This document shows positions 5,018 to 56,872 of a stretch of 64,000 bases of DNA, one piece after another. The notes under the pieces are model-generated. The model searched no databases. It was given only the letters and a program-made list of their open reading frames with translations, and was not told the origin of the DNA. Made by a program: the position numbers and the translations under genes. The stretch lies in the NCBI RefSeq assembly GCF_017348835.2, contig NZ_CP071375.1. The stretch is one strand, 5' to 3'. The first letter of the stretch is position 1. The number at the start of each line of letters is the position of its first letter. Source of the stretch: Escherichia coli (GTDB taxonomy: Bacteria; Pseudomonadota; Gammaproteobacteria; Enterobacterales; Enterobacteriaceae).

Positions 5018-5200
5018 TCGCATCAGGCATTTATCGCCTGATGCGACGCTGGCGCGTCTTATCATGTCTGGGATTTGATGCCTTTATCACAACAGGGACG
5101 AGGCCCGTAGATCGGATAAGGCGTTCACGCCGCATCCGGCGGTTGCGCTCCGATGCCTGATGCGACGCTGGCGCGTCTTATCAGGCCTACAAAGGCATAC
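5018..5200. repeat. REP/BIME cluster (several palindromic units, gcctgatgcgacgctggcgcgtcttatcaggcctac type)
   Basis: Imperfect palindromes with REP consensus repeated in alternating orientation between convergent ygfZ and yqfA. Confidence 0.75.
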
Positions 5201-17794: not shown

Positions 17795-17978
17795 ATTTCT
17801 CTGAGATGTTCGCAAGCGGGCCAGTCCCCTGAGCCGATATTTCATACCACAAGAATGTGGCGCTCCGCGGTTGGTGAGCATGCTCGGTCCGTCCGAGAAG
17901 CCTTAAAACTGCGACGACACATTCACCTTGAACCAAGGGTTCAAGGGTTACAGCCTGCGGCGGCATCTCGGAGATTCC
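17795..17978 (+). ncRNA. ssrS: 6S RNA
   Basis: Sequence atttctctgagatgttcgcaagcgggccagtcccctgagccgatatttcatacc...ggagattccc matches remembered 6S RNA over its full length; sits between zapA and ygfA. Confidence 0.9.
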
Positions 17979-18601: not shown

Positions 18602-18649
18602 GGGCGACACACCTGCATCGCCCTGATTGACATCGTTGATTCTTTGACC

Positions 18650-18800
18650 TAATTTAGTGAGTAAGGGTAAGGGAGGATGACTCCTCCCCTGAGACTGACT
18701 GTTAATAAGCTGGGAAACTTATGAGTAACAGTACAATCAGTATGATGACAAATCGCATCATAACCCTTCTCCTTTAAGCCCTCGCTTCGGTGAGGGCTTT
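18650..18800 (+). ncRNA. sibC: SibC antitoxin sRNA (boundaries approximate)
   Basis: Antisense to ibsC, ends in hairpin gccctcgcttcggtgagggc at 18778-18797; position between ygfA and serA as remembered for sibC. Confidence 0.55.
18702..18761 (-). CDS. ibsC: type I toxin IbsC (19 aa hydrophobic peptide)
   Basis: Reverse strand atg atg cga ttt gtc atc ata ctg att gta ctg tta ctc ata agt ttc cca gct tat taa = MMRFVIILIVLLLISFPAY; below the ORF-track size cutoff. Confidence 0.8.
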   Translation of the reverse strand: MMRFVIILIVLLLISFPAY

Positions 18801-36939: not shown

Positions 36940-37055
36940 TGTGCGCTTTGTCATGCCGGATGCGGCGTGAACGCCTTATCCGGCCTACAAAAACCTGCGA
37001 ATTCAATATATTGCAGGATACGTGTAGGCCTGATAAGCGTAGCGCATCAGGCAAT
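36940..37055. repeat. REP/BIME elements
   Basis: gccggatgcggcgtgaacgccttatccggcctac and gtaggcctgataagcgtagcgcatcaggc palindromic units. Confidence 0.65.
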
Positions 37056-52757: not shown

Positions 52758-52764
52758 AGCCTGG

Positions 52765-52960
<196 letters not shown>

Positions 52961-52962
52961 GC

Positions 52963-53883
52963 TTACTCGCCCTTTTTCGCCGCCTGAATATACAGCATCT
53001 CCAACGCCAGCGTCGCTGCTGCCAGAGCGGTGATTTCCGACTGATCGTATGCCGGAGCCACTTCCACTACGTCCATCCCAACGATGTTGAGATCTTTCAG
53101 GCCGCGTACCAGTTTAATGGCGCGATCGGAGGTCAGACCGCCAATTACCGGCGTACCGGTTCCCGGCGCAAATGCAGGATCCAGGCAGTCGATATCAAAG
53201 GTCAGGTAAACCGGCATATCACCCACAATTTGTTTCACCTGGGCGATAACGTCATCCACGCTGCGATCGTTCACCTGGCAGGCGTCCAGCACGGTAAAGC
53301 CGTTGTCTTTATCAAATTCGGTACGAATACCAATCTGCACGGAATGATTCGGGTCGATCAGACCTTCTTTCGGCGCGGTATAGAACATGGTGCCGTGGTC
53401 AAATTCACAACCGTTAGCGTAGGTATCGGTGTGGGCATCAAAGTGTACCAGCGCCATTTTGCCGAAATGCTTCGCATGTGCACGCAGCAGCGGCAACGTA
53501 ACAAAGTGGTCACCACCGAAGGAGAGCATACGCTTACCGGCAGCCAGCAGCTTCTCGGCGTGTGCCTGCAGTTTTTCGCTCATCTCACGGGCATCGCCGA
53601 AGGCATATACCAGATCGCCGCAGTCCACCACGTTCAGACGCTCGCGCATGTCGAAATTCCACGGGAAGCGGTTGTGTTCCCAGGCCAGGTTAGTCGAAAC
53701 CTGGCGAATCGCCGCCGGGCCGTGACGACCACCGGCACGGCCAGAGGTGGCCATGTCGAACGGCACGCCGGTGATCACCCAGTCGGCATCGCTGTCATAC
53801 GGCTGGAAGTTCATCGGCAGGCGTAAAAAACCAAAGGCGTTGGAAACCAGTGAGTTATCGTATTGATGACCTAAGGTGCTCAT
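52963..53883 (-). CDS. speB: agmatinase
   Basis: 306 aa ORF. Confidence 0.95.
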
Positions 53884-53910: not shown

Positions 53911-53951
53911 TAAAAAAACCCTTCCGCGTCGTTAGGCCCGACGAGGAAGGG
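53911..53951 (-). terminator. rho-independent terminator downstream of the lipoprotein gene
   Basis: Minus strand hairpin cccttcctcgtcgggcctaacgacgcggaaggg followed by a 7-T run. Confidence 0.55.
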
Positions 53952-54018
53952 TTGGATTTGCGAAACACAAGTTTGTGCTAATTATCGCCTTAAATGGGCG
54001 AGGCATCAAGCGAGGTTG

Positions 54019-54750
54019 CTATTTCCGACACGGTGGCGGCGCATAGCCATTGTTGTCCGCCGGAAACGCTTGTCCAGAGCACGGCGGCAGCGCGTTTTGC
54101 GCCTGGCCTTGTAATTCAAAGGCGGCAAAGCCGATTACACCGGTATTACGCACATCGCCTTGCGCCGAATTGGCTGCGTAGGAATCAGCAACGTTGGCGA
54201 ACTGAAAAGCCGCTTCGGTATGTTTATCTTTGCGGAATCCTTTAATCGCTAACGAATCTCCGGCATTCACAATATAGCCGTTGTTATTCAGCGAACCTTG
54301 CTTGCCGTTCAGCACATCCAGGCCATCAACCGTAGCAACGATCTCGTAGTTGGTGTTACGACTGTAATTACGAACATATAATTGATAATTCATTCCGACT
54401 CTGGCATGGACAATATAGCGTGGTTCATTATTTGATGAATCATAAACCCGCGTAATAGGTAGAGAATTAAAATTACCATCGCGAATAGCATATTCCAGTT
54501 CGTTAATACGAATGCTATAAACGCGGTCGTAGCCGGAAGGAACATTAGTCGAATAACTAATAACGATCATCTCTGCAGGATCGCGCCAGGCTCGTTCAGC
54601 AGATACGCCCTGAACCGATGAGTGCACATCCCCACCCCAGGCGGTGCCGACATTGCCCGATGCACTGCTATTATACTGCGCATTACTGGAACAACCGGCC
54701 AGCAGCACGACTAATGCTATCAACGCGCTACGTACTTTCCATTTTTTCAT
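54019..54750 (-). CDS. lipoprotein of unknown function (not in K-12 at this site as far as I recall)
   Basis: 243 aa; signal peptide with lipobox LLAGC; Asn/Tyr/Ser-rich mature domain, Pro/Cys-rich tail PPCSGQAFPADNNGYAPPPCRK. Confidence 0.6.
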   Translation of the reverse strand: MKKWKVRSALIALVVLLAGCSSNAQYNSSASGNVGTAWGGDVHSSVQGVSAERAWRDPAEMIVISYSTNVPSGYDRVYSIRINELEYAIRDGNFNSLPITRVYDSSNNEPRYIVHARVGMNYQLYVRNYSRNTNYEIVATVDGLDVLNGKQGSLNNNGYIVNAGDSLAIKGFRKDKHTEAAFQFANVADSYAANSAQGDVRNTGVIGFAAFELQGQAQNALPPCSGQAFPADNNGYAPPPCRK

Positions 54751-54834
54751 AACCGTTCCCTCTGCATTTAATTAATGCAGCGATTGTAGGGAGATTATTT
54801 AATAAGAAAAGCAGCTAGATTATTTTTAAGAATA

Positions 54835-54878
54835 TATAAAAAGAAAGCGGGCCGATTTACGTAAATAAATCGACCCGC
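54835..54878 (-). terminator. speA terminator hairpin
   Basis: gcgggccgattt...aaatcgacccgc imperfect palindrome just past the speA stop, T-rich tail on the minus strand. Confidence 0.45.
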
Positions 54879-54895
54879 CAGCAGAATAATCTCAA

Positions 54896-56872
54896 TTATT
54901 CATCTTCAAGATAGGTATAACCGTACAAACCTGCCTCGAACTCTTCAAGGAACTGTTGTTGCAGTTCAGCATCAAGATCGGTTTTCTTCACTTGATCACG
55001 GAACTGAGTTAACAGCGTTTTCGGATCGAGCTGTACATATTGCAGCATGTCCGCCACGGTATCGCCTTCGTCAGACAGTTCCACTTCTACACTACCGTCA
55101 GGGAAGACGAACACGTCAACCGCTTCGGTATCACCGAACAGGTTGTGCATGTTGCCGAGGATCTCCTGATATGCGCCGACCATAAAGAAACCGAGCATCG
55201 GCGGATTCTCTGGATCGTACTCCGGCATAGGCATTGTCGTGGCAATACCATCACCATCGATATAGTGGTCGATAGCACCGTCGGAGTCACAGGTAATATC
55301 CAGCAGCACAGCGCGGCGTTCCGGCACTTGATCTAACCCTTCCAGCGGCAGAACCGGGAACAACTGGTCGATCCCCCACGCATCCGGCATCGACTGGAAC
55401 AGCGAGAAGTTGACGTACATTTTGTCCGCCATACGTTCCTGCAGCTCGTCGATAATCGGACGATGAGCACGGTTTTGCGGATCCAGCTGCTTTTGCACTT
55501 CATGGCACATGCTCAAATAAAGCTGCTCAGCCCATGCGCGTTCTTGCAGGCTAAAGATGCCGGAAGAGTAGCCGATATGAATGTCGTGCAGATCCATCTG
55601 ACTGTCGTGTAACCATTCACGCAGAGAACGGCGAGTTCCCGGTTCGTGCATCTCCTGCCAGGTTTCCCACATGCTTTGCAGCGCGCGCGGCGCATCTTCT
55701 GCAGGCGCGGTCGGCACCGTGTATTCGTTACGTTCCACGCCGATGATATTAGACACCAGCACGGTGTGATGCGCAGTCACTGCACGACCCGATTCAGTGA
55801 TTACCGTCGGATGCGGCAGACCGTTTTCTTCACACGCATCACCAATCGCCCAGATGATGTTGTTGGCATATTCATTGAGGCCGTAGTTCACCGAACAGTC
55901 GGACTGCGAACGAGTACCTTCATAATCCACGCCCAGACCGCCGCCGACGTCGAAGCACTGAATATTGACGCCCAGCTTGTGCAGTTCCACATAGAAACGC
56001 GCCGATTCACGAACGCCCGTGGCGATATCGCGAATATTCGCCATCTGCGAACCGAGGTGGAAGTGCAGTAGTTGCAGGCTGTCGAGACGCCCGGCTTCAC
56101 GCAGGGTTTCAACCAGTTGCAGTACCTGAGTCGCAGCCAGGCCGAACTTCGATTTTTCCCCGCCGGAGGACTGCCATTTACCCGAGCCCTGCGAAGCCAG
56201 ACGTGCACGCACGCCCAGACGAGGAACGACATTCAGACGTTCTGCTTCATCCAGCACAATGGCGATTTCTGACATCTTTTCAATGACCAGATAGACCTTG
56301 TGGCCCATCTTCTCGCCAATTAATGCCAGGCGGATATATTCGCGGTCTTTATAACCGTTGCAGACGATGACGCTACGGGTCATGCCAGCATGTGCCAGCA
56401 CTGCCATCAACTCGGCTTTGGAACCGGCTTCCAGACCCAGCGGTTCGCCCGAATGAATCAGGGACTCAATCACGCGACGGTGCTGGTTAACTTTGATCGG
56501 ATAAACAAGGAAGTAATCGCCGTTATAGCCGTAGGATTCCCGCGCACGTTTGAACGCGGCGTTAATGGAACGCAAACGGTGCTGCAGGATCTGTGGGAAA
56601 CAGAACAGTGCAGGCAGACGCTGACCCTGTGCTTCACGAGTTTTCACTAACTGCGCGAGATCGACGCGAGCTTCCGGGACGTCCGGGTCCGGGCACACGC
56701 TGATGTGGCCCAGCTCGTTAACGTCATAGTAGTTATTGCCCCACCAGGCAATATTGTAAGTACGCAGCATCTTGCTGGCTTCCTGGGAGCTCATTGCAAC
56801 CTCCTGCATGGAGCGTAGTACACCGTGTTCGCCCGCTGACGAAGGCAAACCCATAGACATGTCGTCAGACAT
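54896..56872 (-). CDS. speA: biosynthetic arginine decarboxylase
   Basis: 658 aa from ATG 56872 ([45 protein letters not shown]...). Confidence 0.95.

Follow-up and report, generated by a model that had tools for sequence, protein, structure and literature searches.

The 64,000-nt window analyzed here, a stretch of contig NZ_CP071375.1 of the Escherichia coli assembly GCF_017348835.2, carries a lipoprotein gene, called X below, between speA and speB. The best overall explanation of X appears to be a selected lipoprotein gene, ancestral at this site, forming its own transcription unit and encoding a tethered periplasmic module, and we give this reading a probability of roughly 0.8. The value of the result is corrective: the speA-speB "operon" of K-12 is a derived arrangement. 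Most E. coli, O157 and the uropathogenic strain CFT073 among them, and most related genera have a predicted terminator, a lipoprotein gene probably expressed on its own, and a promoter dedicated to speB between the two genes.

The gene order around X in the window is tkt - loiP - speB - X - speA - yqgB - metK, with the following features in the interval.

54896 to 56872, minus strand: speA, biosynthetic arginine decarboxylase, the upstream neighbor (ORF list; RefSeq annotation of J53, O157, CFT073, and MG1655)
54896-54898, minus strand: speA stop codon TAA (ORF list)
54836 to 54879, minus strand: T1, a terminator-like hairpin 3' of speA, absent in K-12 (pattern scan and fold)
54783 to 54788, minus strand: candidate -10 hexamer TACAAT of X (predicted from a cross-genus alignment of speA-X spacers)
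54758 to 54762, minus strand: Shine-Dalgarno sequence GAGGG of X (sequence read directly)
54019 to 54750, minus strand: lipoprotein gene X, 243 aa, ATG start (ORF, homologs, dN/dS, AlphaFold)
54691-54702, minus strand: codons of the LAGC lipobox of X
54691-54693, minus strand: codon of Cys20 of X, the predicted lipidated residue
54079-54081 and 54028-54030, minus strand: codons of Cys224 and Cys241 in the Pro-rich tail of X
53981 to 54009, minus strand: promoter-like site proximal to speB (consensus scan and cross-genus conservation)
54004-54009 and 53981-53986, minus strand: -35 TTGATG and -10 GATAAT of that site, with a 17-nt spacer
53912 to 53953, minus strand: T2, a conserved hairpin followed by U7 (fold, inverted repeat, covariation, identity in K-12)
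52963 to 53883, minus strand: speB, agmatinase, the downstream neighbor (ORF list; RefSeq annotation of matching regions)
53961 to 54892, no strand: 932-bp segment standing against 57 bp in K-12-type genomes (pairwise alignment of the window with J53), made up of the speB promoter region, X, the X promoter, and T1

Gene X and its product

The initial annotation of this DNA described X as a 243-aa lipoprotein gene with a lipobox, an Asn- and Tyr-rich mature region, and a tail rich in Pro and Cys, and each of these points is borne out. The ORF opens with an ATG that has GAGGG 7 nt upstream, and an (A/G)GGGA/AGGA block in front of the ATG is conserved in other genera. Residues 1-19 read as a signal peptide (MKKWKVRSALIALVVLLAG, followed by C) with the hallmarks of a signal peptidase II substrate, namely a basic n-region (MKKWKVR), a hydrophobic h-region (SALIALVVL), and a lipobox (L17-A18-G19-C20) with Ser at +2. 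Asn and Tyr make up 10.8% and 6.3% of the mature protein, respectively, and its last 26 residues are QNALPPCSGQAFPADNNGYAPPPCRK. Cys20 is invariant in an alignment of 66 relatives (66/66), and the lipobox is kept in all 12 of the enterobacterial orthologs compared. In enterobacteria, a residue other than Asp at the +2 position predicts sorting to the outer membrane. Across the 66 relatives this residue is A, S, T, Q, G, or N; because it is Ser in X and never Asp in the family, sorting of X to the outer membrane is predicted, following presumed export by Sec and lipidation at Cys20.

The AlphaFold2 model of X is all-beta (mean pLDDT 82, pTM 0.78), with predicted beta-sandwich domains at approximately residues 35-115 and 120-213, while the linker after the lipid anchor and the tail are disordered. 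Motifs conserved in the 66-sequence alignment are LGTxWGE, YE(I/V)VATVDGLDV(L/I)NG, GY(V/I)L...I(E/K)GFRK...AAF(R/Q)F, AYAAN, GVIG.A.FEL, and a C-terminal AFPAD..GYAPPP, and the invariant acidic and aromatic residues include E136, D142, D145, W38, Y122, and Y159. The two cysteines of the tail occur together in 22 of the 66 sequences and are both missing from 41, with a single Cys in three; this co-occurrence is compatible with a periplasmic disulfide between Cys224 and Cys241.

Compared pairwise with its counterparts in O157, the cryptic Escherichia clades, Salmonella, Citrobacter, Klebsiella, and Kluyvera, X gives dN/dS values of 0.06-0.14, and all of the orthologs in this comparison are full length and carry a lipobox. 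These ratios mark X as a genuine functional gene under purifying selection. It is hardly credible that the ORF is a chance reading frame or a pseudogene in decay. RefSeq mostly labels X "hypothetical protein", truncations and IS insertions occur in some genomes, and truncated 174-aa forms exist among the homologs, all of which might suggest decay; set against this are the low dN/dS, full-length orthologs with a lipobox in every genus compared, a family of 4,197 representatives, a confident structure model, and a good Shine-Dalgarno sequence.

Transcription signals on either side of X

Terminator-like hairpins had been noted on both sides of X, and both are found on folding. T1 consists of a 15-pair stem-loop at 54846-54879 followed by a U-rich tail at 54836-54845 (dG -24.2 kcal/mol, z = -5.5); the tail returned by the pattern scan is TTCTTTTTAT, and the tail next to the 15-bp stem also reads as UUCUUUUUAU. 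A strong hairpin equivalent to T1 follows speA in every gene-bearing genus examined, with differing stem sequences. T2 has a 14-bp stem in a stem-loop at 53917-53953, built on an inverted repeat (53917-53931 and 53939-53953), with U7 at 53912-53918 (dG -24.5 kcal/mol, z = -4.4), and none of 200 shuffled sequences folds as well. Ten distinct sequences, representing at least seven genera, each form all 14 pairs of T2, and two of the pairs show compensatory changes. Both T1 and T2 thus have the make-up expected of intrinsic terminators, a G+C-rich stem-loop followed by a U-tract and conserved as structure, and we regard them as predicted terminators. Rfam contains no family for T1 or T2; one match to P31 below threshold (E = 0.055), on the strand opposite T1, was taken as chance.

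The signals upstream of X itself are weaker. The candidate -10 hexamer lies 32 nt before the ATG and is paired with a weak -35 (CTTTTC), and a consensus promoter scan called no promoter for X. The alignment of speA-X spacers shows a TAnnnT hexamer conserved at the -10 position across genera. Downstream of X, a promoter-like site for speB starts 10 nt after the X stop codon, and the pattern TTGAAG-N17-(GGC)GATAAT is conserved across genera amid variable surroundings; the site reads TTGATG-N17-GATAAT in the window, and its equivalent in K-12 is TTGAAT-N17-GATAAT. T2 lies approximately 25 nt beyond this site, and the speB start codon follows approximately 35 nt after T2.

In the proposed scheme, speA transcription would end at the strong terminator T1, and X would be transcribed alone from a weak promoter with a poor -35 and translated from a good ribosome-binding site, with its transcription unit ending just ahead of the conserved speB promoter and T2. 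X would thus be its own transcription unit rather than a member of a speAB operon, being bracketed by T1 on one side and by the predicted speB promoter and T2 on the other.

The initial annotation had assigned the hairpin at 53911-53951 to X as its "own terminator". The hairpin is real, but it is not specific to X: T2 is base-for-base identical in K-12, and because it lies downstream of the conserved speB promoter it would also be part of the predicted speB leader. T2 is probably best described as serving two roles, terminating X (speA in K-12) while also forming an element of the predicted 5' leader of speB. In both alleles it sits downstream of the speB promoter and ahead of the start codon of speB, which makes it a concrete element to consider for the speB regulation that has been reported and is mechanistically unexplained.

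Szumanski and Boyle reportedly described a polycistronic speA-speB transcript in 1990. In gene-bearing strains such a transcript would cross two predicted terminators, as against one in K-12. Given the predicted speB promoter, speB would be independent of read-through from speA in either allele. According to a published study, speB of K-12 has its own experimentally mapped promoter, which is preferred by sigma-S (PMC3141248).

Distribution, ancestry, and the K-12 allele

The initial annotation gave K-12 only a short speA-speB spacer and described X as "inserted" between the two genes. The first point is correct, as the gap is 137 bp in both MG1655 and J53 with no gene between, and X is absent from the K-12 site. 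The second is contradicted by the distribution of X, which is found at this very site in eight or more other enterobacterial genera and in other Escherichia, and by the segment itself, which carries no repeats or mobility genes.

Among 5,426 complete E. coli genomes surveyed, 3,550 (about two-thirds) have the gene-bearing allele by megablast with the spacer, where a call meant a spacer match of at least 80% coverage and 97-100% identity and counted the DNA match regardless of whether the ORF is intact. A junction probe found the K-12-type junction in 1,867, about a third, and these carry a single, nearly invariant gene-less allele: in a sample of rows taken across the ranking, every full-length match showed 100% identity apart from one at 97.7%. 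About eight genomes are in other states, such as an IS1 insertion in H8. Among the strains checked individually, X is present in O157 and in CFT073, which we take to be a phylogroup B2 strain, and absent in K-12 and BL21(DE3).

Beyond E. coli, a synteny scan of one genome per species found the order speA - X - speB - loiP - tkt in an Escherichia cryptic clade, E. whittamii, three species of Citrobacter, Kluyvera, Klebsiella spallanzanii, Intestinirhabdus, Phytobacter, and Kosakonia. In Entomohabitans, an additional ORF separates speA from X and the order is otherwise unchanged. The arrangement in Klebsiella aerogenes is metK - speA - X - speB, and in Salmonella speA - X is followed by an island. 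In E. albertii, the X - speB half of the arrangement is visible and the contig ends inside X, and the 90%-identity cluster of X includes a member from E. fergusonii.

No direct or inverted repeats flank 53961-54892, the ORF list holds no transposase or integrase flanking X, and searches of phage and defense families (PHROGs, PADLOC) gave no meaningful matches. Because X sits at the same position in other genera and other Escherichia lineages, and no repeats or mobility genes accompany it, X is ancestral between speA and speB and the K-12 arrangement is a derived, gene-less allele. By the same comparison, X has stood between these genes since before the enterobacterial genera diverged.

The opposite polarity, in which X is an islet acquired horizontally and recently in the lineage of this strain and K-12 preserves the original state, is very improbable. 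It would account for the absence of X from K-12 and BL21 and for the GC3 of X, 0.47 as against 0.61 for speA and 0.65 for speB, and the speA-speB interval is indeed variable elsewhere: there is a PHP-domain gene in one other lineage (L096), there are islands in Salmonella and in a further lineage (L097), and there is the extra ORF of Entomohabitans. Of the features expected of an islet or mobile insertion, however, the lower GC3 alone points that way. Eight or more other genera, and basal Escherichia lineages too, share the same gene at the same site and in the same direction, which would not be expected of an islet of recent origin, nor would its presence in CFT073. The dS of X to other genera is saturated (approximately 2), as vertical descent predicts, and T1 and the spacer architecture co-vary with genus; the absence of flanking repeats and mobility genes also counts against acquisition.

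The K-12 allele was compared with the ancestral arrangement by aligning the window with J53. The two are identical from speB to 53960, T2 included, and nearly identical from the speA stop codon onward, and the 932 bp between correspond to 57 bp in K-12. The K-12-type allele lacks T1, the X promoter, and X, and retains the speB promoter architecture and T2. The 57 bp of K-12 are approximately 67% identical to the matching stretch of the window and are equally far from other genera (56-70% to Citrobacter, Kluyvera, and Entomohabitans), with flanks that are nearly identical. They have no significant match to the rest of the 932-bp segment, and their positional match to the stretch that follows X is no more than marginal, with a score that 80 of 2,000 shuffles reach. 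Since the 57 bp are this divergent despite near-identical flanks, the K-12 allele does not appear to be a simple, recent, in-place deletion; the gene-less allele would be either old or a recombination import from a lineage without X. A donor lineage for the 57-bp segment was sought and none was found.

Family, possible role, and relation to known systems

X is already known as a gene, and its family is uncharacterized. The exact X protein of the window is already in NCBI (e.g., CTT95027.1) and occurs in at least 119 contigs. Homologs 41-98% identical to X are found in Salmonella, Citrobacter, Klebsiella, Kluyvera, Raoultella, and others, and homologs at approximately 40% identity in Variovorax, Acidovorax, and Paracoccus. 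A word-indexed search gave 287 clusters at 90% identity, and the 4,197 family representatives (50% identity) were collected at E ≤ 1e-3, 3,275 of them also at 1e-10. The hosts are gamma-, beta-, and alphaproteobacteria, with weaker structural matches in Verrucomicrobia and other phyla, and members are named only "lipoprotein", "outer membrane lipoprotein", "membrane protein", or "hypothetical protein".

The initial annotation could assign X to no family, and profile searches lead to the same result, with no match to a well-characterized family. Pfam gave zero matches for X even at E ≤ 10 and zero at E ≤ 0.001 for any of the 66 aligned relatives. The NCBIfam match covers only residues 1-46, the signal peptide (E = 0.0045, far below the cut-off), PADLOC defense families gave none, and the best PHROGs matches (E ≥ 0.015) are confined to the signal-peptide region. 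A sequence-profile search of the PDB with X came back empty, and no close solved structure of the family was found. Foldseek of the X model against AFDB50 returned family members only, named "lipoprotein" or "uncharacterized". X is thus a member of a large uncharacterized lipoprotein family, mainly of Proteobacteria. Its members share a common plan of a lipid anchor, a flexible linker of variable length, and a core of approximately 190 residues in two beta-sandwich domains, ending in a conserved C-terminal motif, (A/P)FP-D...YAPPP, which in enterobacteria is probably looped by the Cys pair. Linker length is the main variation among relatives (approximately 10 to approximately 150 residues), and a few are circularly permuted; the longest relatives have low-complexity linkers only, with no fused or extra domains.

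A literature search with incomplete coverage found no paper on X or its family, and a likely reason for this scarcity is that standard laboratory strains lack X. X is genomically ordinary, and there is nothing mechanistically surprising about it yet. The family nevertheless runs to thousands of sequence clusters, is under strong purifying selection, and has no curated Pfam or NCBIfam model, which makes X a reasonable candidate for envelope biology in pathogenic E. coli, Salmonella, and Klebsiella.

The genomic neighborhoods of X relatives were read from ORF calling for enterobacteria, which is crude and unreliable in high-GC loci, and from precomputed gene calls elsewhere. In Comamonadaceae, the relative lies between hisD and hisC in the his operon and is followed by a small ORF, which in Variovorax has a weak Pfam match to Rap1a (type VI immunity) and in Acidovorax has none. 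Relatives in Gilliamella, Providencia, Proteus, Paracoccus, and others have unrelated neighbors. Trabulsiella carries an X paralog, 41% identical, between DUF1161 and UPF0257 genes and two genes from an acetyltransferase gene, which from the K-12 gene order is presumably speG. No neighbor is conserved across the distant taxa examined, and outside Enterobacteriaceae the contexts examined show no association with polyamine genes. The family looks like one of stand-alone genes often lodged between housekeeping genes.

These contexts bear on whether X is tied to polyamine metabolism, for example by binding agmatine or putrescine or by partnering SpeA, and has been kept at the site for that reason. 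The conserved speA-X-speB order across Enterobacteriaceae, the Trabulsiella paralog two genes from the acetyltransferase read as speG, and the many invariant acidic and aromatic residues all fit such a tie. SpeA is reportedly associated with the envelope. We nonetheless consider the tie unlikely, given a strong predicted terminator between speA and X and a separate speB promoter, family contexts outside Enterobacteriaceae in the his operon and unrelated loci, a working pathway in K-12-type strains without X, and a Trabulsiella neighborhood that is possibly a coincidence. A role for X as an envelope component of arginine/polyamine physiology, either as a ligand binder or as an anchor or regulator of an envelope-associated arginine decarboxylase, is in our estimate quite unlikely. 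If it were true, the speA-X-speB placement would have been functional since the origin of Enterobacteriaceae, the Trabulsiella paralog would be where it is for the same reason, and K-12 polyamine biology would have been worked out in a strain that lacks one of the participants.

A further candidate role for X is that of a periplasmic lipoprotein of the inhibitor or immunity type, shielding the envelope from a hydrolase of outside origin or from a toxin delivered by contact. Lipoproteins of this class are often strain-variable, X is a small all-beta lipoprotein that is polymorphic for presence or absence within E. coli, and the weak Rap1a match in Variovorax also points this way. Single-copy occurrence, synteny, and long, steady purifying selection are unlike typical immunity genes, however; no cognate toxin gene lies nearby in any context examined, X has no PADLOC match, and the Rap1a match is both weak and outside the enterobacterial locus. 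We judge such a function to be quite improbable.

We return to X as a selected, ancestral, independently transcribed gene for a tethered module. Our committed guess is that its product is a periplasmic module for binding or scaffolding, tethered to the membrane and without enzymatic activity, which is dispensable in the laboratory and lies outside the steps of polyamine synthesis.

Among characterized systems, the nearest parallel is architectural. In outer-membrane lipoproteins of the LpoA/LpoB type, a disordered linker lets the protein act at a distance in the periplasm. X resembles these proteins in its lipobox, its non-Asp residue at +2, its flexible linker of variable length, and a compact domain without a catalytic signature, but no similarity in sequence or fold to LpoA/LpoB or to other characterized lipoproteins was detected, and the likeness is one of architecture by analogy. 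Fungal DUF7918 proteins, other uncharacterized eukaryotic beta-sandwich proteins, and MATH/TRAF-like domains are 9-23% identical to X, with no Pfam match; to our knowledge DUF7918 has no known function, and the resemblance is uninformative about the activity of X. Direct counterparts are the RefSeq entries WP_000758914.1 ("lipoprotein", O157) and WP_000758911.1 ("hypothetical protein", CFT073), which are X at the same locus with 97-98% DNA identity, and UniProt A0A1Q4PKQ4 ("Lipoprotein"), the same protein at 98% identity. The speA-speB spacer of K-12 shares with the window the TTGAnn-N17-GATAAT promoter and the hairpin with U7 ahead of speB; to these the window adds the speA terminator T1 and 732 bp of coding sequence between speA and the speB promoter.

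Divergence of the gene-less allele and of speB

The 57 bp that lie between speA and the conserved hairpin + U7 ahead of speB in the K-12 locus (L001, 3078-3134) share only about 67% identity with positions 53961-54018 of the window, a divergence between the two strains that is at the intergenus level within flanks that are nearly identical on both sides. The allele without the gene may thus be of old origin or may have been imported, and no donor of the K-12 segment was found among the sequences compared. Divergence from K-12 is also seen in speB (52963-53883), where approximately 45 of 921 positions (about 5%) differ and the 5'-terminal part of the gene has 14 of these in roughly 100 bp (53689-53785); for comparison, speA shows approximately 40 differences over about 2 kb. 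Many of the speB differences from K-12 are also common to the O157 comparison. Their density, particularly at 53689-53785, may reflect a recombination tract. In nearly all other gene-bearing genomes, the spacer is only 97-98% identical to that of the window.

Variation in the speA-speB interval and decay of the lipoprotein gene

The speA-speB interval is variable among the Enterobacteriaceae, as observed in the following loci:

Salmonella (L004): the lipoprotein gene, then a GntR/mannitol-dehydrogenase island
L096 lineage: a PHP-domain gene where the lipoprotein gene would be
L097 lineage (L097/L098): a sugar-utilisation-like island ahead of speB
Entomohabitans (L028): an additional 295-aa ORF in the gap between speA and the lipoprotein gene

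Disrupted or truncated copies of the lipoprotein gene are present in some lineages (E. coli matches H8 and H20, protein clusters P0025 and P0036, and Shigella dysenteriae entries). In one case IS1 has inserted, in another the match is split, and shortened forms of 174-181 aa also occur, those of Shigella dysenteriae among them. The gene therefore also decays independently in some lineages, in addition to being missing from the K-12-type allele. Upstream of the intact gene lies one further element, within the predicted 5' end of its transcript:

54762-54780, minus strand: imperfect palindrome CTGCATT-AATTA-AATGCAG, between the -10-like hexamer and the SD of the lipoprotein gene

Escherichia keeps this palindrome and other genera do not; it might serve as an operator or form a small hairpin in the leader.

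Family members at other loci

Homologues in the Comamonadaceae (Variovorax and Acidovorax; L008, L009 and L012) are found within the histidine operon, in the gap between hisD and hisC, and are followed by a small ORF of 122-129 aa, which in Variovorax has a weak Pfam match to Rap1a (type VI immunity). Trabulsiella guamensis (L010/L033, 6001-6759) carries a 41%-identical family member at a separate locus with DUF1161 and UPF0257 genes on either side, presumably ynfD and ynfC judging from the K-12 gene order. If the acetyltransferase two genes away is speG, as we take it to be, this locus would be a second case of adjacency to a polyamine gene, though perhaps a coincidental one. Some metagenomic relatives (P0238, P0239 and P0246) are circularly permuted, such that the YEVV.TVDG...GVIG domain leads and the LGTxYGE segment lies near the C-terminus, preceding the conserved FPxxxRYAPPPP tail.

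The speB leader and other features of the window

Additional elements identified in the window are as follows:

52759-52824 and 52872-52937: a REP/BIME-like palindromic element of 66 nt that occurs twice in the loiP-speB spacer, with 88% identity between the copies
17795-17978, 18627-18777, 5110-5187 and 36989-37031: Rfam gathering-level matches to 6S RNA (ssrS), Sib antitoxin RNA, naRNA4 and ES036, respectively
53912-54009, minus strand: speB promoter-like site and hairpin + U7, the same element being present in the K-12 locus (L001, 3028-3125)

The four RNA matches are ordinary E. coli features. Rfam contains no family matching the speB leader element, and a leader ORF is absent from 53912-54009. 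Both the promoter-like site and the hairpin + U7 are conserved, and they are arranged as a promoter-like TTGAnn-N17-GATAAT followed, after at most about 25 nt, by the terminator-like hairpin + U7 and then by the speB ribosome-binding site. This promoter-terminator-gene arrangement in the speB leader looks like that of a transcription attenuator.
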